Virus record (IMG/VR): IMGVR_UViG_2609459797_000001
From: a virus
Lineage: Duplodnaviria > Heunggongvirae > Uroviricota > Caudoviricetes > Autographiviridae
Direction: 5' to 3' (one strand)
DNA: 10,867 nt
Numbering within the stretch: position 1 is the stretch's first letter; each line of letters opens with the position of its first letter. The notes beneath the pieces were generated by a model that saw nothing but the letters and a program-made list of their open reading frames with translations, was not told the origin of the DNA and did not search any database. Shown here piece by piece: positions 1 through 10,867 of this stretch. Both the position numbers and the translations under genes were made by a program.

Positions 1-377
1 TGGACGAACAGTGGGGCTATGTCGGGGCTAAATCGCGCCAGCGCTGGCTGTTTTACGCGTATGACAGGCTCCGGAAGACGGTTGTTGCGCACGTATTCGG
101 TGAACGCACTATGGCGACGCTGGGGCGTCTTATGAGCCTGCTGTCACCCTTTGACGTGGTGATATGGATGACGGATGGCTGGCCGCTGTATGAATCCCGC
201 CTGAAGGGAAAGCTGCACGTAATCAGCAAGCGATATACGCAGCGAATTGAGCGGCATAACCTGAATCTGAGGCAGCACCTGGCACGGCTGGGACGGAAGT
301 CGCTGTCGTTCTCAAAATCGGTGGAGCTGCATGACAAAGTCATCGGGCATTATCTGAACATAAAACACTATCAATAA
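1..377 (+). CDS. insB: IS1 transposase InsB, C-terminal part (5' end lies outside the window)
   Basis: Open frame from the window start to TAA at 375-377; the listed ORF 111..377 is only the part after an internal Met. Sequence recognised as IS1 InsB from memory. Confidence 0.85.
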
Positions 378-392
378 GTTGGAGTCATTACC
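1..392 (+). mobile_element. IS1 insertion sequence, 3' portion ending at its terminal inverted repeat; truncated by the window edge
   Basis: Frame 3..377 translates to the InsB C-terminal sequence ([21 protein letters not shown]...[15 protein letters not shown]). GTTGGAGTCATTACC at 378-392 matches the IS1 terminal repeat as I remember it, 15 nt after the insB stop. Confidence 0.9.
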
Positions 393-457: not shown

Positions 458-1534
458 ATGAATTTGACAGCAATGAATCTTGTGAATGCGATAGCCAACC
501 TGCCCAAAAACAGGCAGTTTGATTATGTGAATGAAAGTAATGCTGGGAAGATTGTCGTCGACTCGATTAAGTCACCACAAGGCCCGATACGCTTTAAGCG
601 TTTTAACCCGACCAAAGGTGAGACGCTTAAAGATGCAAAAATAGACAGCATCTCTAGCCAGATGCTTTGGCGTTTGGCTAACGCAATTCAAGAGGATGCA
701 CCTATCAATTTAGATAGAGTGCTTGGTGCAAGCTATAACTCCCGTTCCGTTATTGAGAGTTTACTTGCACACACACCGCAATTTTATTGGTGTAAACTCG
801 ACCGTTTAGAAGTTATTAACACTAAACAGACGGTAAAGAAAGGCCACAAGCATCTTGTGTACTTACCCAATTCGCCACACGAAAACGGTAAGCTCTCTGA
901 ATACAAAGCTAATATTGTAATATCAGAGATGAAAACAGAAGTTGTTTATCAAAGTGTTGATCTGGAAACAATCCGTCCAGTTGAAGGTATGTCGATTGAA
1001 GAATCAAGAAGGCATGCACAAATCCAGATTGCTTTAGTAAAAATAGGCCACCACTTAGGCTATAGAACATGGGTGGCAGCTAATGATCGTGGACTTAAAT
1101 ATAACGGGAAAGTCATTGCTCAAATGGATGGGGTAATTGATAGTCTCTCAAATGAAAAGGTATTAAGCTCGTACAGCGAGGCCATTGACGGTGCAAAACT
1201 AATAGATTGCATTTGGTTTAGAAATGGAAAATTAATGCCCGCCGTGATGGAAATTGAGCACAGCACTGGGATTAAAAGCGGATTAATCCGTATGAAGAAT
1301 TTTTGTGACTATGCCCCACGGCTTCAAGATATCAGATGGACAATCGTAGCCCCCGATGAATATCGAGCTAAAGTCATTGAATTTGCGAATATGCCGCAAT
1401 TCCGAGAGCTGGACACAAAATTCTTCCCGTACTCAGCAGTCGAAGAGTTGTATTCTCTTTGTGAACGACGCAAACCACAAGGAATTACAGACCAATTCCT
1501 TAATGCGTTTATGGAAAACTGCGTAACCCACTGA
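458..1534 (+). CDS. Hypothetical protein (358 aa), compositionally foreign; possible nuclease or defence-type protein (inference only)
   Basis: ATG at 458 preceded by AGGGA about 7 nt upstream; uninterrupted 358-codon frame to TGA at 1532-1534. Hand counts on 60-nt samples give about 37-48% GC against a clearly GC-richer surrounding. Convergent with the minus-strand operon. Weak D...E-x-E pattern (LIDCIWF...AVMEIEHS) that could be a PD-(D/E)XK-like core; not verified. Confidence 0.7.
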   Translation: MNLTAMNLVNAIANLPKNRQFDYVNESNAGKIVVDSIKSPQGPIRFKRFNPTKGETLKDAKIDSISSQMLWRLANAIQEDAPINLDRVLGASYNSRSVIESLLAHTPQFYWCKLDRLEVINTKQTVKKGHKHLVYLPNSPHENGKLSEYKANIVISEMKTEVVYQSVDLETIRPVEGMSIEESRRHAQIQIALVKIGHHLGYRTWVAANDRGLKYNGKVIAQMDGVIDSLSNEKVLSSYSEAIDGAKLIDCIWFRNGKLMPAVMEIEHSTGIKSGLIRMKNFCDYAPRLQDIRWTIVAPDEYRAKVIEFANMPQFRELDTKFFPYSAVEELYSLCERRKPQGITDQFLNAFMENCVTH

Positions 1535-1588: not shown

Positions 1589-2017
1589 TCACCCCGGATA
1601 AACAACGCCCAGCCCTTGGTTTTGTTGGCGGTAGCTCGCCAGCATCGCGTTCATGTTGCCAGGCGACAGCCCACACAAACGCCCAGCATGGTAGCCACCC
1701 TCAGCAGCGTTAGCAGAACGATGCACCACAGCACGCACGCGCCCGGTTCGGTGGCAATGATCCAGCACGGCAGACGCAAGGCGCAGCGGTTTACCTGTCA
1801 CCGCACAGCGTCGGTATTGATAATTCCACAGGAAGATACGGACAGCGGCCACATCAGCGCGGCGCAACTCCAGCCGACCGGAACCATTCAACAGGAAGCG
1901 ATACACATCTTCGAATACAGCAGCATTTGTAATCCGTTCAGCCAACGGCATGTTGCCGAGGTGTTCCAGATAGTCCCGCATCGCTTTTCTTAGTAGTTGG
2001 TCTGTCCGTGTAACCAT
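1589..2017 (-). CDS. Endonuclease VII-like (phage T4 gp49 family) junction-resolving nuclease
   Basis: Motif LDHCHRTGRVRAVV...ANAAEG matches the remembered endonuclease VII core (HLDHDHE...GKVRGLLCNLCNAAEG). ATG at 2017 with GGAG about 10 nt upstream; last gene of the minus-strand operon. Confidence 0.75.
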   Translation of the reverse strand: MVTRTDQLLRKAMRDYLEHLGNMPLAERITNAAVFEDVYRFLLNGSGRLELRRADVAAVRIFLWNYQYRRCAVTGKPLRLASAVLDHCHRTGRVRAVVHRSANAAEGGYHAGRLCGLSPGNMNAMLASYRQQNQGLGVVYPG

Positions 2018-2289
2018 GATTCAAAGTCTCCATTGTCAGACGCAGCCCGCTTGCAGGCTTCGTATTCTTCGCACTGGCGTTGGCAAACCAGAACATAAAG
2101 TTCATCAGCCATCGCATTAACGCGTTCGTCACTGATACCGTTGCGGCGCATTAGCCCCAGCAGCTTACGAAATTCAGCTTCCAGCTCAGGCTCTCCGGTA
2201 TCCATTACCCACTGTTTCAGGTCAGCGAGTGCGCCAGTCATTGGCGGCGGCTCGATGTACCGCCACCTTAATTTAATCGTGGTTATCAT
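1990..2289 (-). CDS. Hypothetical small phage protein (start uncertain; 2289, 2241 and the TTG at 2337 are alternatives)
   Basis: Minus-strand frame ending TAA at 1990-1992. The listed start at 2337 is a TTG and overlaps the upstream gene by 65 nt; the ATG at 2289 overlaps the upstream stop by 17 nt, which is more typical of coupled genes. Confidence 0.45.
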   Translation of the reverse strand: MITTIKLRWRYIEPPPMTGALADLKQWVMDTGEPELEAEFRKLLGLMRRNGISDERVNAMADELYVLVCQRQCEEYEACKRAASDNGDFESWLHGQTNY

Positions 2290-2698
2290 CTTCTTTATTC
2301 TCTCTGTAAGCCGGGTGCATTGCCCGGTATTGCTCAATGGTCAAACCCTCGCTGGCCGCTGTAAGCCGTTCCTTTTGCTTACCCGCCAATCGCAAGGCGC
2401 TGTCTCTCCAGCAGAGCAGAAAGAAGACGGTCAGCACCTGCTTACTCAAGCCATCCAGAAGATCACCAAGTCCTTGCTCCAGAAGACAGGCACGCCATGC
2501 AGCGGCATGCTCCGTCATAGCGCCGACTATCGGGACAGGTGCGCCAAGCATCGTCGCAAGTTGGCTCATAACACTATTAGCATCGCCCGGATGCAGTCGG
2601 GGCATAGTCATGCGGCCAGCCTGCGCCAACAGTTCAGCGTACCGCTGGCGACGTGGGTCATCATCTGCCAGCGCTCTAATCGGCTTTTCATCAGCCAT
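2273..2698 (-). CDS. Hypothetical phage protein (141 aa)
   Basis: ATG at 2698 with GGAGG 9 nt upstream; lies 18 nt after the stop of the HNH gene; same strand and packing as its neighbours. Confidence 0.7.
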   Translation of the reverse strand: MADEKPIRALADDDPRRQRYAELLAQAGRMTMPRLHPGDANSVMSQLATMLGAPVPIVGAMTEHAAAWRACLLEQGLGDLLDGLSKQVLTVFFLLCWRDSALRLAGKQKERLTAASEGLTIEQYRAMHPAYRENKEDDNHD

Positions 2699-2716
2699 TA
2701 ATGGAACCTCCGGGGA

Positions 2717-3226
2717 TTAGGCAGCCTGCAACAAATCGGCTGGTGTTGAGGGATGGTATCTGGCTTTAGCTTTCAGGTACGCAGCACGTGCCGCCGCTTC
2801 GGATGTGAATAAGCCAAGGTGATGGCGTACACCGTCAACGCGTATGTAAGCCTCCCATTTGCTACAGCCTTTATTCCAGCTATATCCCCTTGCCTTGCGT
2901 CGGTTCTGGTCGTTTTCCCGCTGCGTAACCAAACGCAGATTGCATAGGCGGTTGTCGTCACGGATACCGTTGATGTGATCGATCTGCTTACCGTGAGGAA
3001 TAGCGCCATGCGCAAGAATCCACGCCACGCGATGGGCTTTTAGCTGGTACTGCTTGCCATCAAGTCGCAGGGCAACTTGACGATAGCCATCAGCTCGCCG
3101 GGTGGAGTCAGCATAGGAGCCAGCCTTAACCCGGCGTCGGTTAGCTTTATGGCACAAGCGACCTGTAACCGGGTCATACAGGAAAAGGGATCGCAGCAGC
3201 TCAGGGGCGTAAGCATCATTAACCAT
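2717..3226 (-). CDS. HNH homing-endonuclease-like protein with C-terminal AP2-type DNA-binding domain
   Basis: HNH_3-type motif AHRVAWILAHG...IDHINGIRDDNRLCNLRLVTQREN, followed by an AP2-like segment GYSWNKGCSKWEAYIRVDGVRHHLGLFTSEAAARAAYLKA. ATG at 3226 with GGAGGGG upstream. Confidence 0.85.
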   Translation of the reverse strand: MVNDAYAPELLRSLFLYDPVTGRLCHKANRRRVKAGSYADSTRRADGYRQVALRLDGKQYQLKAHRVAWILAHGAIPHGKQIDHINGIRDDNRLCNLRLVTQRENDQNRRKARGYSWNKGCSKWEAYIRVDGVRHHLGLFTSEAAARAAYLKAKARYHPSTPADLLQAA

Positions 3227-3242
3227 GACTCAGCCCCTCCAG

Positions 3243-4238
3243 TTACGCAGATTGTCGGAAATTGATAACGCAATCAGGACGACGCAGCCCAACGTTGAAC
3301 AGGCGATATGAGTCCATCACCATCGTCATTTCGCGTTCATCATCCCACTGGCGATTAATGACGCTCTGCGCTTCGACCGTCAACAGTACCGAGGAAGGTT
3401 TAAACAGCGTCGCCCTCGTCAGCGCTTCCTCTGCGGTAACGTCATAATCAGCGCCCAGTTCATGCCCGGTAATGGCTTCCTGCGGGTAACTATTCAGCTC
3501 GATAACTCGCACCCCAGCGACATAGCCAACACGACGCCATGCGTAATCGTTGCCACTATCCCGGCTGTAACGGACGTTCATCAGCTTCTTATGTTCCATC
3601 AGGATGCTGAACCAAGCCGGGTCGATAAGCAGTACCAACTCCGCCACCGGAATATCTTTCTCAGTCAGGAATCGATTAACAGCAGCTTTAATAGCGCTAA
3701 CCAGCTCATTCGCGGCGTCTTCTTCGCTCCCCGCTGTCAGGTCGAGCGAGACAACGTTATCCGTCAACGGGTTAAACGTTGGTTGCAGTGTCGGCGGTGG
3801 TACAAAGTCAGTCGCTTTGATTAGCTGGATGGCGTGCGCTTCGTCGTAGAATTTAGCGTGAGCAGTACCGATATTGCGGCTCAGCTCTGCGCGAAAGGTG
3901 GGTGCAGTCCAGTCATCCTGATAGTCAATGGGGATGCGGATATAGCTCAGCGTATCCACAGAGATAACCAACTTGTCCGACTTAACGGCGGTAGGCTCCA
4001 GCGATTGCCCTGCTGTTCTGCCCTTCACCTCCAGATCACCACTCAGGCGATCAATGCGGTATTGGTTGCTGGCTTTCAGCGGCCTGTATGTAGACAGCCT
4101 CTCGGCCAGAAATACGGATTTGGACTCTAAACGGGTCTGGACATCCCGGTCATAAGCCTCGATGTGAATATCATTGTCGGATTCCACCCCGCCATAATGT
4201 GGGCGAAACAGATCGGGACTGTACGAAGTATCAGCCAT
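3243..4238 (-). CDS. Hypothetical 331-aa protein; motif pattern resembles HK97-fold major capsid protein of the T7 gp10 type (unverified)
   Basis: ATG at 4238 with GGAG 8-9 nt upstream. Ungapped, position-matched motif resemblance to T7 gp10 as I remember it: VLIYDIED versus IRIPIDYQDD near residue 100; ALTK...VP...DRVFYCDPDSYSAIL versus RFLTEKDIPVAELVLLIDPAWFSIL near 185-215; NVMGFEVVEVP versus YVAGVRVIELN near 240; KYAMG..GLRPE versus SYRLFNVGLRRPD near the C-terminus. Recall-based, needs profile confirmation. Confidence 0.75.
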   Translation of the reverse strand: MADTSYSPDLFRPHYGGVESDNDIHIEAYDRDVQTRLESKSVFLAERLSTYRPLKASNQYRIDRLSGDLEVKGRTAGQSLEPTAVKSDKLVISVDTLSYIRIPIDYQDDWTAPTFRAELSRNIGTAHAKFYDEAHAIQLIKATDFVPPPTLQPTFNPLTDNVVSLDLTAGSEEDAANELVSAIKAAVNRFLTEKDIPVAELVLLIDPAWFSILMEHKKLMNVRYSRDSGNDYAWRRVGYVAGVRVIELNSYPQEAITGHELGADYDVTAEEALTRATLFKPSSVLLTVEAQSVINRQWDDEREMTMVMDSYRLFNVGLRRPDCVINFRQSA

Positions 4239-4435
4239 AACAAAACTCCTACATATGTTGATGAAGCCCGCGCCATCGTCATGGCACAGACGTGCGTAAT
4301 CCTCCCGCCGAGGCAGGATTCAGAACGGTATCGATTAAAGGGATGAGGTGCCCCGGAATGGGCGTTTTGAGGCCAGAGCTGGCGCGGTTCTCAGGGGTTA
4401 GTGCGCGTAAAGTAAGGCGAAAGTATTACCTTGCA

Positions 4436-4849
4436 TTAGTGCGCACTCATACGCGCCATGTTCAACACCTTCCGCACAGAGGTTTCAGACACACCAACCT
4501 TGCTTGCAATGTAACGATTTTTCTGACCTTTTGCAGAGCGATCGATAATGTCAGCGCGTATCGCCTCAGTGATCACCTTGCGGGGTCTGGCTCGGTTCTT
4601 CTCGTGCCGTTCACGTTCGCGCAGCCTTTCGGCCAACTTCGGCGGTAGTACAGGGGAAAGCCCACGGCTAACGCCAGATGTGCGGGTGCCGGATGTGGCA
4701 GACCGGGCAACGATATAAACCGCTTCGTCTGGATTGAAAACGTGCTGCACACGCTCAGGGTAAATGTGGTCGCATCTACCCAACGGCAAGGCGAAATCCG
4801 GGCGCACGTCAGCGACACGCTCCACAGCATGGAAATTACAGGTACTCAT
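4436..4849 (-). CDS. Hypothetical protein with C-terminal helix-turn-helix and an N-terminal Cys/His cluster
   Basis: ATG at 4849 with GAGG about 7 nt upstream. C-terminus IIDRSAKGQKNRYIASKVGVSETSVRKVLN looks like a resolvase/sigma-region-4-type HTH; N-terminus has C-x2-H...C-x-H (MSTCNFH...RCDH). Confidence 0.65.
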   Translation of the reverse strand: MSTCNFHAVERVADVRPDFALPLGRCDHIYPERVQHVFNPDEAVYIVARSATSGTRTSGVSRGLSPVLPPKLAERLRERERHEKNRARPRKVITEAIRADIIDRSAKGQKNRYIASKVGVSETSVRKVLNMARMSAH

Positions 4850-4988
4850 TACGAACCTCGGTTAATTAAAAACAGGCTTTCAGATGCCGCGCAGAATGCG
4901 GCTTGCGGGGACTCATGCGCATAGATTGGTGTGGTAGTACCGGGTCGGTGCGCACTCGGTCTTGCAGAGCGCATTCCACCGTTGGGCG

Positions 4989-5684
4989 TTAGCGGCCAGC
5001 ACGTTTGCCAGCGGAGCGCTGCGCAACCAGAGCGCGGTATTGTTCATCGTACTGGCGATGGCCGGGGCCATACCCTGATTGCTGCGCCCACTGCGAAAGC
5101 TGGTCATACGCTGCTATAAACTCAGCATGAGACATTCCGACAGGTTGCGCGGTAGACTGGCCGTATGGGTTCCCCTGTGATGGGACATAACCAGTCGCAG
5201 TGCCTGCGGACATCCTCTCTTGCAGGTACTGAACCGCCCGCTGCATCTGCGCAGGGTCGCCAGACATAACCATTCGTTCAAGGGTTGATTGCGTCCCACT
5301 GTCGAGCGTGCCAGCGTACTGTAACATCGCGTCAACTGTTCCCTGTCCGAGCTGGCTTTCAATGGACTGGTGAAACTGCCCCATCAATCCTTGCAGCTCA
5401 GCGGTATACTCGACAGCAGTTCCGTCCATCAGAGGGATAGTATCGCCCACCTGCGCCCCGGCGCTGTCAGCGTTCTGGTCTTGCTGATTAGCAATATTGC
5501 TATTATTCCATTGGCCGCCATCATTACCGTTAACGGGTTGGGTACGGAGGAAATCAGCATCAGCAGGCGCAGAGCTAAAGCGGGATGCCCCATTGTCAGC
5601 TCCAACAGGTGCAGCCATGTATGGCGATTGCTGCGATGCAGCATCAGCGCCAGCAGCGAGATAAGGGTTTTGATTGTCAGCCAT
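4989..5684 (-). CDS. Q/N/G/A-rich low-complexity protein (231 aa), function unknown
   Basis: ATG at 5684 with AGAGG upstream, 2 nt after the stop of the preceding gene. Strongly biased composition (for example NGNDGGQWNNSNIANQQDQN) with a helical-looking C-terminal half. Confidence 0.6.
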   Translation of the reverse strand: MADNQNPYLAAGADAASQQSPYMAAPVGADNGASRFSSAPADADFLRTQPVNGNDGGQWNNSNIANQQDQNADSAGAQVGDTIPLMDGTAVEYTAELQGLMGQFHQSIESQLGQGTVDAMLQYAGTLDSGTQSTLERMVMSGDPAQMQRAVQYLQERMSAGTATGYVPSQGNPYGQSTAQPVGMSHAEFIAAYDQLSQWAQQSGYGPGHRQYDEQYRALVAQRSAGKRAGR

Positions 5685-5686
5685 AA

Positions 5687-5926
5687 TTATGCAACCTCTT
5701 GTGATGTAACTCGGCGGTGCGCCAGTTCAAGTAAAAGCATGTGCGCATGTACGCATCGGGCAGGAATCATCTTCTGTCCGTGGTACGCTTTGCCGAGATC
5801 TTGTCTGTCGATCTGGTACACACGAGCCAAGTCGATTTGACGAAGATTCAAGGCGTCAGCAATGAATTTCAGTTGTTGCCCGCAATCAGCCGCGCGGCGT
5901 GGCTCCATTAAAATGATGGTGCTCAT
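5687..5926 (-). CDS. Small XRE/Cro-like helix-turn-helix protein (start placed at the internal ATG with a good RBS)
   Basis: Segment LKFIADALNLRQIDLARVYQIDRQDLGKAYHGQKMIP has the XRE-type HTH pattern. The ATG at 5926 has GAGG about 9 nt upstream, whereas the listed start at 5968 overlaps the upstream gene. Confidence 0.55.
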   Translation of the reverse strand: MSTIILMEPRRAADCGQQLKFIADALNLRQIDLARVYQIDRQDLGKAYHGQKMIPARCVHAHMLLLELAHRRVTSQEVA

Positions 5927-5940
5927 GAAATAATCCTCAG

Positions 5941-6171
5941 TTAAATAAGCCCGTGACGGCGTAGCCAACGGCGCTCGCCAGCGGAGCCACGCGGACGCTG
6001 GCGGCGTCCACGGGCGGTGACTGGCTGTTCGGGTGCGGCCTCACTTCGGAGATTCTGCGTCAGGATGTCCCACCCCTGCGGCTTAACAGGGGCGTAGCCT
6101 TCCCGCATCTCGTCAAGGTTGACGTATTGAGTCGGGTCAATTGCAGGGTGAATGATGTCGTTATCTTCCAT
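5941..6171 (-). CDS. Hypothetical small protein with Arg-rich C-terminus
   Basis: The ATG at 6169-6171 overlaps the upstream TGA stop (6171-6173) by one base in a TGATG arrangement, indicating translational coupling; stop TAA at 5941-5943. The listed start at 6186 would overlap by 16 nt. Confidence 0.45.
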   Translation of the reverse strand: MEDNDIIHPAIDPTQYVNLDEMREGYAPVKPQGWDILTQNLRSEAAPEQPVTARGRRQRPRGSAGERRWLRRHGLI

Positions 6172-6749
6172 CACTCGGCTCCCCATTTCGCATTAACATT
6201 TTCCAGAATGTCACCATACGGCCAGCGGCTCTTTAAGCAGCGGTTAACGAAAGCGATCACCTCTGGCAGAACGTCCAGCTTTTGGGCGATGTCAGCGACA
6301 GGCCAGCCAAAGCGCTCTAACTTGTGGATTTCATCCAAATCAGAAGGCACCAGCTTGCGCATGGCTTTCGCTTTCTCCGGCTTCACTTTAACGGCTTTCG
6401 GCGCAGGGTGAGTGTGGGCGTTCTGGAATCTGGAATGAGCGATAGCCAGCACGGTTTCAGGGCGAATCAGCGTATCGCGGGCAATCATAAATTCCGTATC
6501 ACGGTGCAGCTTGCCGGGCTTATAGCGGCTGCGGATGGCGTTGTATTCAGCCAGAGTAATATCAGCATCGTCTTTCCACTGTTCGGCCAAGTCATCGACA
6601 TAGACGCCACGGATTACACGGTCGATGTCGCTCGGGCTGAAACCAGTGCGAGAAGAGATTTCATCGTTGTTCAGGTGGTCAACAATACTCAGTTTATTGA
6701 TAAGCTGAATATCGCGCAGGGTCAGGGTTGCGTTACTGGTGGTTGTCAT
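6171..6749 (-). CDS. Hypothetical protein (about 192 aa) with HTH-like segments; possible DNA-binding protein
   Basis: The ATG at 6749 has GGAGAG 9-10 nt upstream; the listed start at 6767 is a TTG. HTH-like stretches near both termini (ATLTLRDIQLINKLSIVDHL and VADIAQKLDVLPEVIAFV). Confidence 0.65.
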   Translation of the reverse strand: MTTTSNATLTLRDIQLINKLSIVDHLNNDEISSRTGFSPSDIDRVIRGVYVDDLAEQWKDDADITLAEYNAIRSRYKPGKLHRDTEFMIARDTLIRPETVLAIAHSRFQNAHTHPAPKAVKVKPEKAKAMRKLVPSDLDEIHKLERFGWPVADIAQKLDVLPEVIAFVNRCLKSRWPYGDILENVNAKWGAE

Positions 6750-6924
6750 ACTGGAACTCTCCATCAAAGTTAATCGAATCTTCTACAAGGTCTTTAATCA
6801 AAGCGAGGCTGGATGCGGTATGGATACCACCGCCGCGCCGGGCGTTGTCGTACATGGCTTTGGCCTGCTTCTGGTACTTCTCAGGCAGCGAGTTAAACCA
6901 CGCTCTAAACTGGTGCGGCGTCAT
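6733..6924 (-). CDS. Hypothetical small protein (63 aa)
   Basis: ATG at 6922-6924 overlaps the upstream TGA (6921-6923) in an ATGA-type junction; GGAGG about 11 nt upstream. Confidence 0.5.
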   Translation of the reverse strand: MTPHQFRAWFNSLPEKYQKQAKAMYDNARRGGGIHTASSLALIKDLVEDSINFDGEFQYDNHQ

Positions 6925-7130
6925 TCGTTGTCATCCTCCGGGAACACGTTATTGAAAGATGCGTCCGGCGCATCGGCGGCATTTTGCTTGAGGAAGTTCA
7001 CGCAGGATGACAGCTCGGCAGCAGCCATGCGGGATTCTCCAGCGGAGTCCTCTTTCAGGCGGCGGGTCAGCGCCTCCAGCAACAGGCACCGCATATCCCA
7101 TGTCCCAGCTTCAAACTCGGTTTTGGTCAT
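6921..7130 (-). CDS. Hypothetical small protein (69 aa)
   Basis: ATG at 7128-7130 overlaps the upstream TAA (7130-7132) in a TAATG junction; same operon and strand. Confidence 0.5.
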   Translation of the reverse strand: MTKTEFEAGTWDMRCLLLEALTRRLKEDSAGESRMAAAELSSCVNFLKQNAADAPDASFNNVFPEDDNE

Positions 7131-7561
7131 TAATGGTTATCTCCAACTGGTAACAGGCCAAGCGCCCGGATGTGCTGTATCACTTCTTGATGCACGGGCT
7201 TCGGCAGAAATAAACGGCGGGCAATGGCGGCGTAAACTTCATCAGGTGTCTTGCGCACTGGATGCACTCGACCATTAAAAACCCGCTCAGACAGGCGGAC
7301 AGCTTTCCAGCAACGTGAGCCATCCGGCCTTTTCATGCGGTTCAGCACAGCGGCCAGACACTCCCACGGTTCGCAATCATTCAAAAGGCAATATCGCTCC
7401 AGCGGCGTGGACACCTCGCGAAGGATGGCCTCCCGGTTAAGGGTCTTGCGATGACGTTCGGCCAACCCATCAAATGAATACCCGTTCAGGGCGTAAGCGA
7501 GCTGCGCATTAATCAGGGCGTCAGAACGCCCCGCGCGTTGCTGCACGGTTTCATCAGGCAT
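7130..7561 (-). CDS. Hypothetical phage protein (143 aa)
   Basis: ATG at 7561 with GGAG 8 nt upstream; 43 nt downstream of the helicase stop. Confidence 0.7.
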   Translation of the reverse strand: MPDETVQQRAGRSDALINAQLAYALNGYSFDGLAERHRKTLNREAILREVSTPLERYCLLNDCEPWECLAAVLNRMKRPDGSRCWKAVRLSERVFNGRVHPVRKTPDEVYAAIARRLFLPKPVHQEVIQHIRALGLLPVGDNH

Positions 7562-7604
7562 GTGGATTCTCCAGAGAGGAAATTAAACAGGCGAGCCAGT
7601 TAGC

Positions 7605-9449
7605 TCAGAGGAAGCGGGAGATGTAACCCCAGTTAGCATTGTGGGGCTGGTACAACGCCGCCAAATCATCAGGCGCATCCCCCAGCGCCAACGATGACCA
7701 GAGTATGAAAGCACGGGCAGGTTGACCATCGCGCCCGGCACGGCCAACCATTTGCACCAAATCGGGCAGGTCTTCCGGAACATAAGTGACAATTACGTTA
7801 CGCACGTCAGAAATATCGGCTCCGAGGCCAAAGGCTTTGGTCGCCACCAGAACAGCGCCGGGCGTGCTGGAGAACCACTCTGCGTTGGCGTGCCGCTGAT
7901 CGCGGCTCAGTCGCTCAACGTCAGAATGATAAGGCCGGGCACGGTCTCCCAGTTCGTTGAGATACGCATACAGCATCTTTATGCTGTCCACCATCACCAA
8001 TGTCTTTTCATTCTCCGGCAGCGCATTGACCAGACCAACGGCAGCCCGGCGCGGAGTTACGCATTGCTGAGCAGGAATAAGCTGGATGTTTTCACGGGCA
8101 GCACTGGCGCGGTAGGTGAGGAACTCGCCACGACAGCCAAGCTCTTTCATCAAGCCAGACTCATCACCTTTTCGCAGGGTCGCAGTAAACGCGCACCGCT
8201 GAGCATCCGGGAAGGCATTTTGCAGGGTGTGCTTCATTGCAGGGAAAGCGTCCCGGAACTCCCATTCATCAACGGTGTGCACCTCGTCAATGATAAATCT
8301 GTCCGCACCAGCGGCCATCAGCGCGGCAAGCACCTGACTACCCGGCACCAGATGTTCAGGCGAAACGACTGCGACGCGGAAAGCACCAGCAGCCAACCCC
8401 GCAAGTTGCTGCGCATTACGCCGCTTCGGTAGTTTATCGCCAAATGCCACAGCGTGAACGCCAGCCTCCCTTAACTGCTGTAGCACCTGCTGCTTGATAG
8501 TGTTCGTCGGCACGACAATAACGGTCATACCTTCGCCAGCATCAGACTCAAATTGCAGGGCATAGGTGAATGCAGCCGTCTTTCCGTACCCGGTCGGCAG
8601 TACGGCCAACATATCGCGGTCACGGGCAAACACAGCGGCGGCCACGTCGAGTTGACCGGGTCGCCAGTCATGACCATCTGGCGGCGGTAACGGTACGAAT
8701 GCCGGGCGGTCGCATTGCTCCAGCTCACGGAACCTGTACGGCGCTGTAACCAGCGGCGGGATGGACGGCGGCAGGTCAGCGCCGCCAACGTCACAGTGTT
8801 GGTTCTTCGTGTTGAAATTGTCCTTAGTGGATTTCAGCTCACTGCCCCATAGCTGGTGAAACTCCGGGCTATCCCCGAGGGTGTCAAAGTCAGCGTGGCG
8901 CATCGCCTCCAGCTTGCTCATGCCACGATTGATGCGGCGGATGGTCTTCTCATCACAAATCAGAAACTCGCGACAGGCTTTAAGAAAGGCGTTTTGCCCC
9001 GTGGTCGCTTCCGGGATGGCGTGCTCACGCGGTTTCAATGCGGCATCGTCTACGCGAACACCGGGGAAATCTGGTGGCAGCGGCTCGGCGTACCGGGCAG
9101 GCTTTTTGTTTAGCCACATCACCAGCTCAGCGCGGCGGCAGTGGATTGCATCGCCCGGCTGGATAATCTGGCGCAACCCTGCATCAGCGCGGCGGGCGTG
9201 TGTCTTGCGTCCGATTCCGTTAGCCTCTTTCCATTCTCGGAACGACATAACAGAATCGTCAGCGTTAAAGTAAAACTCTTGTGACTCCGTATTAAACGCA
9301 GCCTGTATGGGTTTACGCTTTACAGGACATTGCTTGTTACGCGATACAACTATCTTATCCGCAACCAGTTGCTGAGCATCCGCAGGCGCAGTGTTCAGCG
9401 GTTCGGCGTCAGCGGCCAGCGCAAGCAGGCGGTTCAATCTCGTGGGCAT
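7605..9449 (-). CDS. SF2 DExH/RecQ-like helicase (614 aa) with a roughly 270-aa non-helicase N-terminal extension
   Basis: Helicase motifs in order: LPTGYGKT (motif I), VVPTNT (Ia), DEVH (II), FTAT (III), VGRAGRDGQ (VI). ATG at 9449 with GGAG 9 nt upstream. Confidence 0.9.
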   Translation of the reverse strand: MPTRLNRLLALAADAEPLNTAPADAQQLVADKIVVSRNKQCPVKRKPIQAAFNTESQEFYFNADDSVMSFREWKEANGIGRKTHARRADAGLRQIIQPGDAIHCRRAELVMWLNKKPARYAEPLPPDFPGVRVDDAALKPREHAIPEATTGQNAFLKACREFLICDEKTIRRINRGMSKLEAMRHADFDTLGDSPEFHQLWGSELKSTKDNFNTKNQHCDVGGADLPPSIPPLVTAPYRFRELEQCDRPAFVPLPPPDGHDWRPGQLDVAAAVFARDRDMLAVLPTGYGKTAAFTYALQFESDAGEGMTVIVVPTNTIKQQVLQQLREAGVHAVAFGDKLPKRRNAQQLAGLAAGAFRVAVVSPEHLVPGSQVLAALMAAGADRFIIDEVHTVDEWEFRDAFPAMKHTLQNAFPDAQRCAFTATLRKGDESGLMKELGCRGEFLTYRASAARENIQLIPAQQCVTPRRAAVGLVNALPENEKTLVMVDSIKMLYAYLNELGDRARPYHSDVERLSRDQRHANAEWFSSTPGAVLVATKAFGLGADISDVRNVIVTYVPEDLPDLVQMVGRAGRDGQPARAFILWSSLALGDAPDDLAALYQPHNANWGYISRFL

Positions 9450-9472
9450 GTTTGAAATCTCCAGTCAAATAA

Positions 9473-9775
9473 TCAAGCAGCTTTCCGCCAGATGTATCGG
9501 CGGTGGACACCTCTCTTTTTGGTCACGCCGTGCAGCTTTCGCCATGCGCGGAAGGTCATAACGGAACCATCGGGATTGTAGTAATACACACGCAGACGTT
9601 TGTGGAATGCTCCCTGTACCGTCTTGTCCGTGACAGCGCAGCGCACGTAATGCGGGATAACAGTTTCACTCCAGACCAGTTGTTGCGGCGTGGCGCTAAT
9701 CGTGCTTAACGCTTCGGCGGCAGCGGTTGCCAGCTCCAGTTGCAGGCGTGAATTCATGTGGCGTAAATCAACCAT
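9473..9775 (-). CDS. Small protein (100 aa) paralogous to the N-terminal ~90 residues of the downstream helicase
   Basis: ATG at 9775 with GGAG about 8 nt upstream. Ungapped alignment to helicase residues ~3-92: QQLV, C-x-V, K, Q-AF, Y-N-D-SVM-FR-W, G, K, RR all in register. Confidence 0.7.
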   Translation of the reverse strand: MVDLRHMNSRLQLELATAAAEALSTISATPQQLVWSETVIPHYVRCAVTDKTVQGAFHKRLRVYYYNPDGSVMTFRAWRKLHGVTKKRGVHRRYIWRKAA

Positions 9776-9818: not shown

Positions 9819-9875
9819 GGACGGAAGCGCCGGAAGTGTGGCGGTGGCGGTTGAGGCGGCGTCGGTGTTCCGTCC
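9819..9875. other. GC-rich interrupted hairpin (stem GGACGGAA/TTCCGTCC around a 41-nt GGCGG-repeat loop) in the operon leader
   Basis: Perfect 8-bp inverted repeat at 9819-9826 and 9868-9875, with an inner CGCCG/CGGCG pair and three GGCGG repeats in the loop; lies 45-100 nt upstream of the first start codon of the minus-strand operon. Confidence 0.3.
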
Positions 9876-10123
9876 CTCTTTAGTAGTGATCTTCATCCAG
9901 TGATTTGGATTTAACTCAGGCGCAACAGGCAATGCAGCGGGATAGCGCGAGGGCGGGCTTGTGGTCTCATCTTCCCACAGTAGTAACCCTTATCGGTCGG
10001 TAGCCTTCCCAATATAGTAGCTTTCAAGTCAAGAATTCTATCCGGGGCTTGCCTTCCCTTTGTAGTCACTTTCATCCACGCATACCCCGGACAGCCCTTG
10101 TGGCGTCTGGTGCGACAGGCAAT
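9876..10123. repeat. Iteron-like imperfect direct repeats in the noncoding region upstream of the helicase operon
   Basis: CTCTTTAGTAGTGATCTTCATCCA (9876-9899) versus CCCTTTGTAGTCACTTTCATCCA (10056-10078); GGCGCAACAGGCAAT (9919-9933) versus GGTGCGACAGGCAAT (10109-10123); CTTGTGG twice; CAATATAG twice; TAGTAG-type hexamers four times. Confidence 0.4.
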
Positions 10124-10252
10124 TTCAGGTAGGTGTATTAGGGATGTGAAATTGGTTCTTGGCGTAGCTCTTTCCTACAATATAGACACTTTTAAATTTA
10201 TTAATAAATGCAGTCAGTTAAACGGTTATCTTTATTACCTATAACTTTCACA

Positions 10253-10274
10253 GATCAATAGATTAAAATTGATC
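10253..10274. promoter_or_regulatory. Palindromic operator-like site GATCAAT-N8-ATTGATC containing two GATC (Dam) sites
   Basis: Perfect 7-bp inverted repeat with an 8-bp AT-rich spacer, located just upstream of the promoter-like hexamers. Confidence 0.35.
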
Positions 10275-10287
10275 GGAATTATCAGCT

Positions 10288-10325
10288 TTAAATTTCTTGA
10301 CAGCTATTTGTATAATGGTTTTAAG
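10288..10325 (+). promoter_or_regulatory. Rightward sigma70-like promoter candidate (overlapping alternatives)
   Basis: Perfect TATAAT at 10311-10316 with TTAAAT 17 bp upstream (10288-10293); alternatively perfect TTGACA at 10297-10302 with TTTAAG 17 bp downstream (10320-10325). AT-rich upstream region. Confidence 0.35.
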
Positions 10326-10527: not shown

Positions 10528-10867
10528 GGTGATGCTGCCAACTTACTGATTTAGTGTATGATGGTGTTTTTGAGGTGCTCCAGTGGCTTCTGTTTCTATC
10601 AGCTGTCCCTCCTGTTCAGCTACTGACGGGGTGGTGCGTAACGGCAAAAGCACCGCCGGACATCAGCGCTATCTCTGCTCTCACTGCCGTAAAACATGGC
10701 AACTGCAGTTCACTTACACCGCTTCTCAACCCGGTACGCACCAGAAAATCATTGATATGGCCATGAATGGCGTTGGATGCCGGGCAACAGCCCGCATTAT
10801 GGGCGTTGGCCTCAACACGATTTTACGTCACTTAAAAAACTCAGGCCGCAGTCGGTAACCTCGCGCA
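10528..10867 (+). mobile_element. IS1 insertion sequence, 5' portion (left terminal repeat and insA); continues beyond the window
   Basis: GGTGATGCTGCCAACTTACTGAT at 10528 onward matches the IS1 end repeat as I remember it; insA starts 55 nt inside, as in IS1. Same orientation as the IS1 fragment at 1-392. Confidence 0.9.
10583..10858 (+). CDS. insA: IS1 InsA (91 aa)
   Basis: Translation [43 protein letters not shown]...LKNSGRSR recognised as IS1 InsA from memory; complete ORF with stop at 10856-10858. Confidence 0.9.

Follow-up and report, generated by a model that had tools for sequence, protein, structure and literature searches.

The 10,867-nt stretch held in IMG/VR as IMGVR_UViG_2609459797_000001 (hereafter the window), recorded there as a virus of the Autographiviridae, carries at positions 7605-9449 on the minus strand a gene for a 614-amino-acid (aa) helicase of superfamily 2 (SF2). 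What such a helicase does in this setting was the question. A sequence-only reading had offered two roles for it, the replication initiator-helicase of a phage or satellite-like replicon and the motor of a defence or anti-defence module. In our analysis, the gene looks like a core early gene of an apparently undescribed integrative element that parasitises lytic phages of the Bonnellvirus type. That it encodes the replication or recombination helicase of a new satellite family, induced by the RNA polymerase (RNAP) of the helper phage, is a proposition to which we give an even chance, its exact step of action being the more conjectural part.

The RecQ-type motor core and its N-terminal region

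The open reading frame (ORF) starts with ATG, and a GGAG motif lies 9 nt before the start codon. The product was matched by the Pfam profiles DEAD (residues 264-426, 1.2e-18) and Helicase_C (residues 478-575, 1.9e-15), and its PHROGs label was DNA helicase. The best solved relatives in a PDB sequence search were E. coli RecQ, WRN, RECQ1, and BLM, always over residues ~260-586. Residue-level alignment with residues 25-341 of E. coli RecQ (1OYW) placed the helicase core at residues 263-586 (7692-8663, minus strand), with two RecA-like domains and motifs 0 to VI, including motifs 0 (WRPGQ), I (PTGYGKT), II (DEVH), III (TAT), V (VATKAFGLG), and VI (QMVGRAGRDG). The aromatic-rich loop of RecQ was also found after motif II (HTVDEWEFRDAF), where the segment HTVDEW..EFRDAF lines up with the RecQ loop HCISQWGHDFRPEY. 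Neither the motif residues nor this loop varied among 20 family members, and a Foldseek search with the AlphaFold2 (AF2) model of the helicase returned RecQ cores only (1OYW, 1.9e-15, ~315 columns). The assignment to SF2 DExH/RecQ-like helicases with all core motifs, made in the sequence-only reading, therefore holds.

The chain ends 28 residues past motif VI, and the zinc-binding, winged-helix (RQC), and HRDC modules are absent; the profiles PF16124, PF09382, and PF00570 did not match it, whereas the true RecQ proteins retrieved in the same relative search carried them. Both RecQ family models scored below their cut-offs (TIGR00614, 137.6 bits against 219.8; TIGR01389, 139.7 bits against 640.2). 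Judged by its sequence, the gene indeed codes for a DNA helicase of the RecQ type, cut down to the two motor domains and with a family-specific N-terminus, and the best explanation of its product is an ATP-driven DNA helicase of the RecQ family with predicted 3'-5' activity. It is a previously unreported form of a known enzyme type, a RecQ-like core joined to an orphan N-terminus. Both names that the protein currently bears, 'RecQ' and, in PADLOC, 'DpdF', are misleading for annotation.

The first ~270 residues had been described as not helicase-like, and residues 1-262 indeed matched no Pfam, PDB, or other family apart from their own. No Pfam match was obtained at E<=1 in 11 family members, a profile of the region found nothing in PDB at E<=10, and searches of PHROGs, NCBIfam, PADLOC, and PDB sequences gave nothing for it. 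An exhaustive HMMER search against 1.84 billion representative proteins yielded 14 matches, which were the helicase family itself, its fragments, or small paralogues. The AF2 models were of low confidence (mean predicted local distance difference test score, pLDDT, 57 when the N-terminus was modelled by itself and 62 for the full-length helicase), and Foldseek on the N-terminal model returned nothing below E=2; because of these poor models and the empty search, no fold is claimed for the N-terminus. The region is conserved even in relatives that are 47% identical, with Q97-P98-G99-D100, C165, and C246 among the invariant residues.

At least two modules make up the N-terminal region. Module A (residues 1-86; 9192-9449, minus strand) is a paralogue of the 100-aa ORF immediately upstream (9473-9775, minus strand), which aligned with helicase residues 1-82 at 41% identity (E 3e-19). 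Its residues ~25-80 were the only part modelled with moderate confidence, as beta-beta-beta-alpha (pLDDT 70-89). Module B (residues ~130-200; 8850-9062, minus strand) is helical and has known stand-alone paralogues (P0100); one ORF of the module-B type, 83 aa long, lies directly upstream of the helicase in L008, a distant relative. The modules and the stand-alone paralogues encoded upstream might give the helicase its target or partner specificity, or regulate it. The 100-aa ORF is the first gene of the operon, and the helicase, which the sequence-only reading had placed at its head, is the second gene and the first large product downstream of the promoter-like array described below.

An integrative element and its sequence links to lytic phages

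Intact relatives of the window share one gene order. A tRNA-Leu(CAA) or tRNA-Gly(CCC) gene is followed by a serine recombinase, a noncoding stretch that can reach ~1.5 kb, a small ORF, and the helicase, and then by about eight small ORFs, the capsid gene, an HNH endonuclease gene, two ORFs, an Endonuclease VII (EndoVII) gene, variable cargo, and an integrase, so that an integrase lies at one end of the element and a resolvase at the other. Two Logan contigs of the element (14,907 and 14,774 nt) carry at both ends 25-29 nt of the tRNA-Leu 3' end, and these repeated ends are accordingly taken as the att repeats of a ~14.8-kb element. Two different tRNAs, tRNA-Leu and tRNA-Gly, are in use as att sites.

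The operon is kept in 15 loci from eight genera of the Enterobacteriaceae, including Escherichia, Citrobacter, Enterobacter, Cronobacter, Kosakonia, Trabulsiella, and Kluyvera, and relative searches found no full-length helicase relative outside it. Among complete E. coli genomes, the gene was present in 56 of 5426 (~1%), as a single copy and always chromosomal. The helicase belongs to the invariant core of the element; known defence genes, which in the relatives are NmeDI-type, Eco47II, or Eco29kI restriction-modification (R-M) systems or AbiTii, occupy a separate swappable slot beside the integrase. A decayed prophage was ruled out, as gene content and size are constant across the eight genera.

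Several sequences tie the element to lytic phages. The major capsid protein (MCP; 331 aa, 3243-4238, minus strand) is 50-56% identical to MCPs of the genera Bonnellvirus and Waewaevirus, with full-length identities of 56% to Lidtsur, 55% to Kc261, and 54% to J8-65 (Bonnellvirus), and 50% to LIMEzero (Waewaevirus). These four are lytic Autographiviridae with genomes of 41-43 kb, about three times the 14.8 kb of the element, and their hosts match the host genera of the element. A 69-aa ORF (6921-7130, minus strand) encodes a homologue of the first ~58 residues of the small terminase (TerS) of Bonnellvirus; hhalign against the 101-aa phage protein gave E 4.6e-5, a probability of 68%, and 50% identity over 40 columns. 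Profile searches found no portal, large terminase, tail, polymerase, or lysis gene among the window proteins, and no primase or other replication protein besides the helicase in the element.

Upstream of the operon, five promoter-like repeats of 24 nt were identified within 9872-10194 on the minus strand (10171-10194, 10051-10074, 10003-10026, 9969-9992, and 9872-9895). All are directed towards the operon, and their consensus is TGAAAGTGACTACAAAGGGAAG. A 150-nt AT-rich stretch (10176-10325, 24-26% GC) lies at the upstream edge of the array. The region had been called iteron-like in the sequence-only reading, and the directed repeats are there; however, they differ strongly among themselves, their start-to-start spacing is irregular (120, 48, 34, and 97 nt), and Tandem Repeats Finder (TRF) detected no tandem array. 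Relatives carry three to six copies each in one orientation, while L008 has only one weak match.

The repeats match a phage promoter motif. In the database record of LIMEzero, two sites of this motif class bear the label 'putative phage specific promoters' (TTTAAAGGCAATCACTAAGG and TATAAAGGCAAGCACTATGA). Kc261, Lidtsur, and J8-65 have the class at five positions in synteny, including the gap after the RNAP gene, and four sites were found in LIMEzero; in Kc261 (L062), the sites are 5850, 19778, 20046, 33169, and 41492(-), syntenic in L007, L011, and L061. The motif core covaries within each phage genome, as would be expected of promoters that track the phage's own polymerase. A position weight matrix (PWM) built from the satellite repeats found 5 Kc261 sites at >=17 bits, against 0.03 expected in shuffles. 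With a PWM built from 19 phage sites only, the top three hits in the window were the repeats at 10026 (21.4), 10074 (21.1), and 9992 (17.3), the 95th percentile of shuffle maxima being 15.1, and repeat 10026 equals Kc261 site 5850 over 18/18 nt. A simple consensus search for the motif gave no link to phages, and the link became significant only once Kc261 and the annotated LIMEzero promoters were included. No sigma-70-like promoter was predicted upstream on the operon strand. Since the repeats are heterogeneous and irregularly spaced and match the phage motif, they are read as helper-type promoters rather than iterons, the phage promoters being themselves predictions.

Of the Bonnellvirus motif copies, the one near the genome end lies on the opposite strand, and another two run into annotated gene starts or coding sequence; an annotation exists for no more than two of the phage sites, both in LIMEzero. 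In the window, a 15-nt inverted repeat (10038-10052 and 10080-10094, 80% complementary) flanks the second promoter-like copy; if the repeat folded into a hairpin or cruciform, that copy would form the loop.

Two further matches concern the phage genome end. In L009, positions 4378-4542 (also present in L001) aligned with noncoding Kc261 sequence near the genome end (41356-41521) over 167 nt at 88% identity (E 5e-53). This segment lies just upstream of the promoter array in L009 and contains the promoter-like motif in inverted orientation. In the window, the upstream region is a variant without the segment and had no blastn match in the phage genomes. In addition, an attL-resolvase segment of ~80 nt in relatives (L003 ~7240-7330, L006 647-726, and L009 2576-2620, all outside the window) aligned across the exact left terminal-repeat boundary defined in J8-65. 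With the boundary marked by a slash, J8-65 reads ...GGGCCTCCC/TCGACCCGAAGG and the satellites ...CCCCTCCC/TCAAC..., in short form CCTCCC/TCGAC in the phage against CCTCCC/TCAAC in the satellites. The segment is likely a mimic of the terminase cut site.

Taken with the integrase, the tRNA att repeats, the ~14.8-kb unit, and the capsid and TerS-like genes, these helper-type promoter and genome-end sequences give good support to the phage or satellite-like replicon that the sequence-only reading had offered as one of its options. In IMG/VR, the helicase profile found one contig only, as did the repeat-motif search, and these searches gave no virome evidence of packaging of the element.

The two halves of the operon differ in conservation. 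Across the 15 relatives, the late half (1589-5684, with the 231-aa ORF, capsid, HNH, and EndoVII genes) mostly exceeds 90% protein identity across genera, whereas the early half (5687-9775, with the helicase and most small ORFs) is more divergent, at about 52-93%. Compared with the closest relative, L003, an exchange point lies near 4325-5106 of the window. Upstream of the capsid gene, a Q/A-rich protein of 231 aa (4989-5684, minus strand) had no detectable homology, and its position and composition suggest a scaffold-like protein; the other operon proteins of 143, 63, 198, 81, 93, 141, and 115 aa likewise gave no informative homologues in profile and protein searches. The HNH_3 endonuclease (2717-3226, minus strand), identified by a profile match, has a C-terminal segment read by eye as putatively AP2-like, of the homing-endonuclease type; the protein could serve in packaging as a cofactor or act as a nuclease against the helper. 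The EndoVII-like protein (1589-2017, minus strand) is encoded by the final gene of the conserved operon. An Rfam search found nothing.

Some relatives depart from this plan. In the E. coli relatives L004 (11324-12457) and L005 (8371-9504), a deletion has taken out the capsid and HNH genes and two further ORFs, so that the beginning of the capsid region now continues into the EndoVII gene as one ORF of 377 aa; their helicase is identical to that of the window. The most distant element, L008, lies at tRNA-Gly and has a helicase 47% identical to that of the window; its HNH gene is upstream of the helicase rather than after the capsid gene, and a gene with a Phage_pRha domain (7938-8579), absent from the other elements, lies between the resolvase and the helicase region.

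In the variable cargo slot, the window carries a type II restriction endonuclease of the NmeDI_C type (458-1534, plus strand). The 3' part of an IS1 copy (1-392, plus strand) interrupts the cargo methyltransferase gene 130 nt before the gene end; within 393-1534, the Dcm-type methyltransferase has thus lost its 3' 130 nt, while the endonuclease ORF is intact. The restriction gene is here without a cognate methylase, unless the shortened methylase works or a second copy exists. The 5' part of a second IS1 copy (10528-10867, plus strand) lies 751 nt before the 100-aa ORF, on its upstream side; through this insertion the operon has lost its connection to the resolvase, the cut-site mimic, and attL that are present in intact relatives.

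Proposed role of the helicase and competing explanations

We propose that the element is silent at tRNA-Leu or tRNA-Gly before infection. The single-subunit RNAP of an infecting helper would recognise the promoter array and transcribe the operon, the 100-aa ORF and the helicase first. The helicase would then open or remodel the DNA of the satellite, probably at the promoter array and the AT-rich stretch or close to them, which would let the primase-helicase and polymerase of the helper copy the element and form concatemers. The MCP, the TerS-like protein, and the terminal-repeat-boundary mimic would afterwards redirect assembly and packaging. In this scheme, induction by the helper RNAP, a part for the helicase in replication or recombination, and a part for its N-terminus are proposals; what bears on a helper dependence of induction, replication, and transfer is mimicry of helper promoters at the sequence level.

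A more specific version is tentative, and we hold it with clearly less confidence than the scheme as a whole. In an undescribed satellite family living on strictly lytic T7-like phages (Bonnellvirus and Waewaevirus), infection would be sensed by an array of helper-RNAP promoters that have diverged from one another, every copy being suited to another helper species. Replication would use an origin activated by transcription, as in T7, where the helicase would engage its orphan N-terminus to process the R-loop or AT-rich DNA close to the promoters and so serve the replisome of the helper. If true, the helicase would represent a class of satellite replication proteins, and the array a principle of induction, that are both new.

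Several points weigh against a helper-induced replication or recombination helicase. The satellite PWM applied to Lidtsur or J8-65 alone did not exceed shuffles, several of the phage motif sites overlap annotated start codons, and the database record itself lists the phage promoters as no more than 'putative'. The homologies to the helper terminal region lie outside the window or are missing from its variant, and the window's copy, split by two IS1 insertions, may be defective or immobile. The low-confidence AF2 models (pLDDT 57 and 62) give a role of the N-terminus no structural support. Further, we know of no RecQ-type SF2 helicase that serves as a replication protein or initiator of any satellite or plasmid; known satellites (phage-inducible chromosomal islands, PICI; P4; and PICI-like elements, PLE) use SF3/primase-helicase or RepA-type initiators. 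Every functional step of the proposed mechanism is one that we infer.

Among the alternatives, the best placed, although in our view unlikely, is a motor of interference or defence that targets the helper or further phages and might, for instance, strip or unwind intermediates of phage replication or transcription, much like the RecQ-like DpdF of Dpd or the PsyrT/RqlH toxin. Satellites often interfere with their helpers, as the PLE and PICI literature describes, and the greater divergence of the early operon half, including the helicase (about 70-86% aa identity, compared with mostly >90% in the late half), could reflect an arms race. The PADLOC profiles 'DpdF' and 'PsyrT' also match the helicase, but these matches arise because of the shared RecQ core. 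PDLC02858 ('DpdF') scored 1052 bits over its full length (1-504 of 504) on residues 111-614 (window 7605-9119), an end-to-end match that makes this profile appear to have been built from the satellite helicase family itself, whereas the curated NCBIfam model of DpdF (NF041063) reached 116.4 bits against a cut-off of 550. The PsyrT profile (1.9e-34) covered the helicase core only, and the flanking ORFs had no PADLOC match. Except for the cargo restriction endonuclease, no window neighbour matched Dpd or other defence models, and no dpdA-K, PsyrA, or other defence partner adjoins the helicase. The gene also stands in the conserved core, whereas the defence genes stand in the variable slot next to the integrase. 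The defence or anti-defence motor considered in the sequence-only reading is less likely than its phage or satellite-like replicon. Two specific candidates were rejected: a component of the Dpd 7-deazaguanine system, as the curated model is far below its cut-off and neither dpdA/B/C nor dpdD-K is nearby, and a PsyrTA/RqlHI toxin, as no antitoxin gene is adjacent. Automated defence finders will nevertheless label the gene DpdF though no Dpd system is present.

Somewhat less probable still is the classical initiator-helicase that the sequence-only reading had named first, in which the N-terminus binds the repeats as iterons and melts the AT-rich stretch, and the same protein is the replicative helicase of an autonomous replicon. 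Five directed repeats do lie beside a 150-nt stretch of 24-26% GC upstream of the gene, an array of this kind has been kept by all relatives, origin binding could be the task of the orphan N-terminal region, and the small N-terminal paralogue encoded upstream is what would be expected of a titrating regulator. Against this stand the strong differences among repeats within one element, their irregular spacing, the empty TRF search, and the match to the helper promoter motif, with one copy identical over 18/18 nt; near-identical, regularly spaced iterons were not found. The motor is a monomer-type SF2 RecQ-like core rather than a ring helicase, with no Rep/RepA, SF3, or DnaB-type fold, and the element encodes no primase or polymerase. 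The idea is weakened by these repeats and by the enzyme type, which is not known among initiators.

A role in concatemer processing or packaging appears quite improbable. The helicase would in that case act with the HNH and EndoVII proteins to resolve branched DNA or to duplicate the terminal repeat, and replication would not be started by it. RecQ enzymes act on branched DNA, T7-type packaging requires concatemers and repeat duplication, and the HNH and EndoVII genes share the operon of the helicase in all loci; however, the helicase is promoter-proximal, ~4-6 kb and about ten genes away from the nucleases, and nothing found speaks for this role directly.

An ordinary host RecQ repair paralogue that happens to sit in an island, which the name 'ATP-dependent DNA helicase RecQ' in the sources and the RecQ cores among the closest structures might suggest, is effectively refuted, since the protein scores under the family cut-offs (137.6 against 219.8 and 139.7 against 640), lacks the Zn/RQC/HRDC modules, and is encoded in 1% of E. 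coli genomes, always within the element and at two tRNA sites, a rare and element-bound occurrence that excludes a housekeeping repair gene and is the opposite of the conserved chromosomal synteny that the sequence-only reading had named as decisive for a host helicase.

Comparison with known systems

Known phage satellites belong mostly to temperate phages, or to a few virulent myoviruses and siphoviruses. T7-like phages shut off the host and bring their own RNAP, and to our knowledge no satellite is established for them; full-text literature searches found no description of this element family or of any satellite of Autographiviridae. An element with helper promoters, a genome-end cut site, a diverged capsid gene, and a RecQ-type motor would show how T7-like phages are parasitised. 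It would be a compact and tractable E. coli system, as E2348/69 has intact copies and K-12 can be used to plate the candidate helpers. For therapy and biocontrol, where phages of the Bonnellvirus type are candidates, elements of this kind could reduce phage yield or spread defence genes.

At the level of the enzyme, the protein shares with RecQ helicases (1OYW; WRN, RECQ1, and BLM) the two RecA-like domains, all motifs, and the aromatic-rich loop, at 25-30% identity over ~320 residues. Unlike them, it has no Zn, RQC, or HRDC modules, carries a 262-residue orphan N-terminus, is encoded by a mobile element, and falls under the family cut-offs. With DpdF of the Dpd system and with PsyrT/RqlH, it shares the RecQ-like motor domains and the PADLOC profile matches, but it is without Dpd or antitoxin partners and has a different N-terminus.

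The replication modules of known satellites (Pri-Rep of PICI, the alpha primase-helicase of P4, and RepA of PLE) resemble the present one in the position of a large early gene beside a repeat-bearing AT-rich noncoding region, and in their context, an integrative element of ~15 kb that depends on a helper for virion parts. They differ in that the motor here is SF2 RecQ-like rather than SF3/primase or RepA_N, that there is no primase domain, and that the repeats are promoter-like rather than iterons. As a lead only, the tandem phage-type promoter-like elements beside an AT-rich stretch may be likened to the primary origin of T7 (phi1.1A/B and its AT-rich region); in the element, however, the AT-rich stretch lies upstream of most promoter copies, and there is no evidence of transcription-primed replication.

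As a whole, the element shares with PICI, capsid-forming PICI (cfPICI), PLE, and phage-inducible chromosomal minimalist islands (PICMI) an integrase at a tRNA site, a size of about one third of the helper genome (SaPI1 has ~15 kb, compared with ~44 kb for 80alpha), a small-terminase-like gene, and a slot for defence cargo. PLE and PICMI, like this element, have an apparently virulent helper. The differences lie in the presumed helper, a T7-like podovirus with its own RNAP, in the presumed induction through helper-type promoters, and in the helper terminal-repeat boundary that is carried. An assignment to cfPICI was rejected: the element has its own MCP but no portal, protease, large terminase, or connectors, and in place of a complete capsid module only the MCP and a TerS-like fragment were found. 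Intact relatives nevertheless combine an integrase, att repeats, and a size that is a fraction of the helper genome with an incomplete virion, lysis, and replication set, yet with an MCP, a TerS-like gene, and a boundary mimic, which are the features of a satellite in the broad sense; on all sequence criteria applied, the element resembles a satellite of strictly lytic Autographiviridae of the Bonnellvirus type. On this sequence comparison, it appears to be a new family in an established category, the phage satellites.

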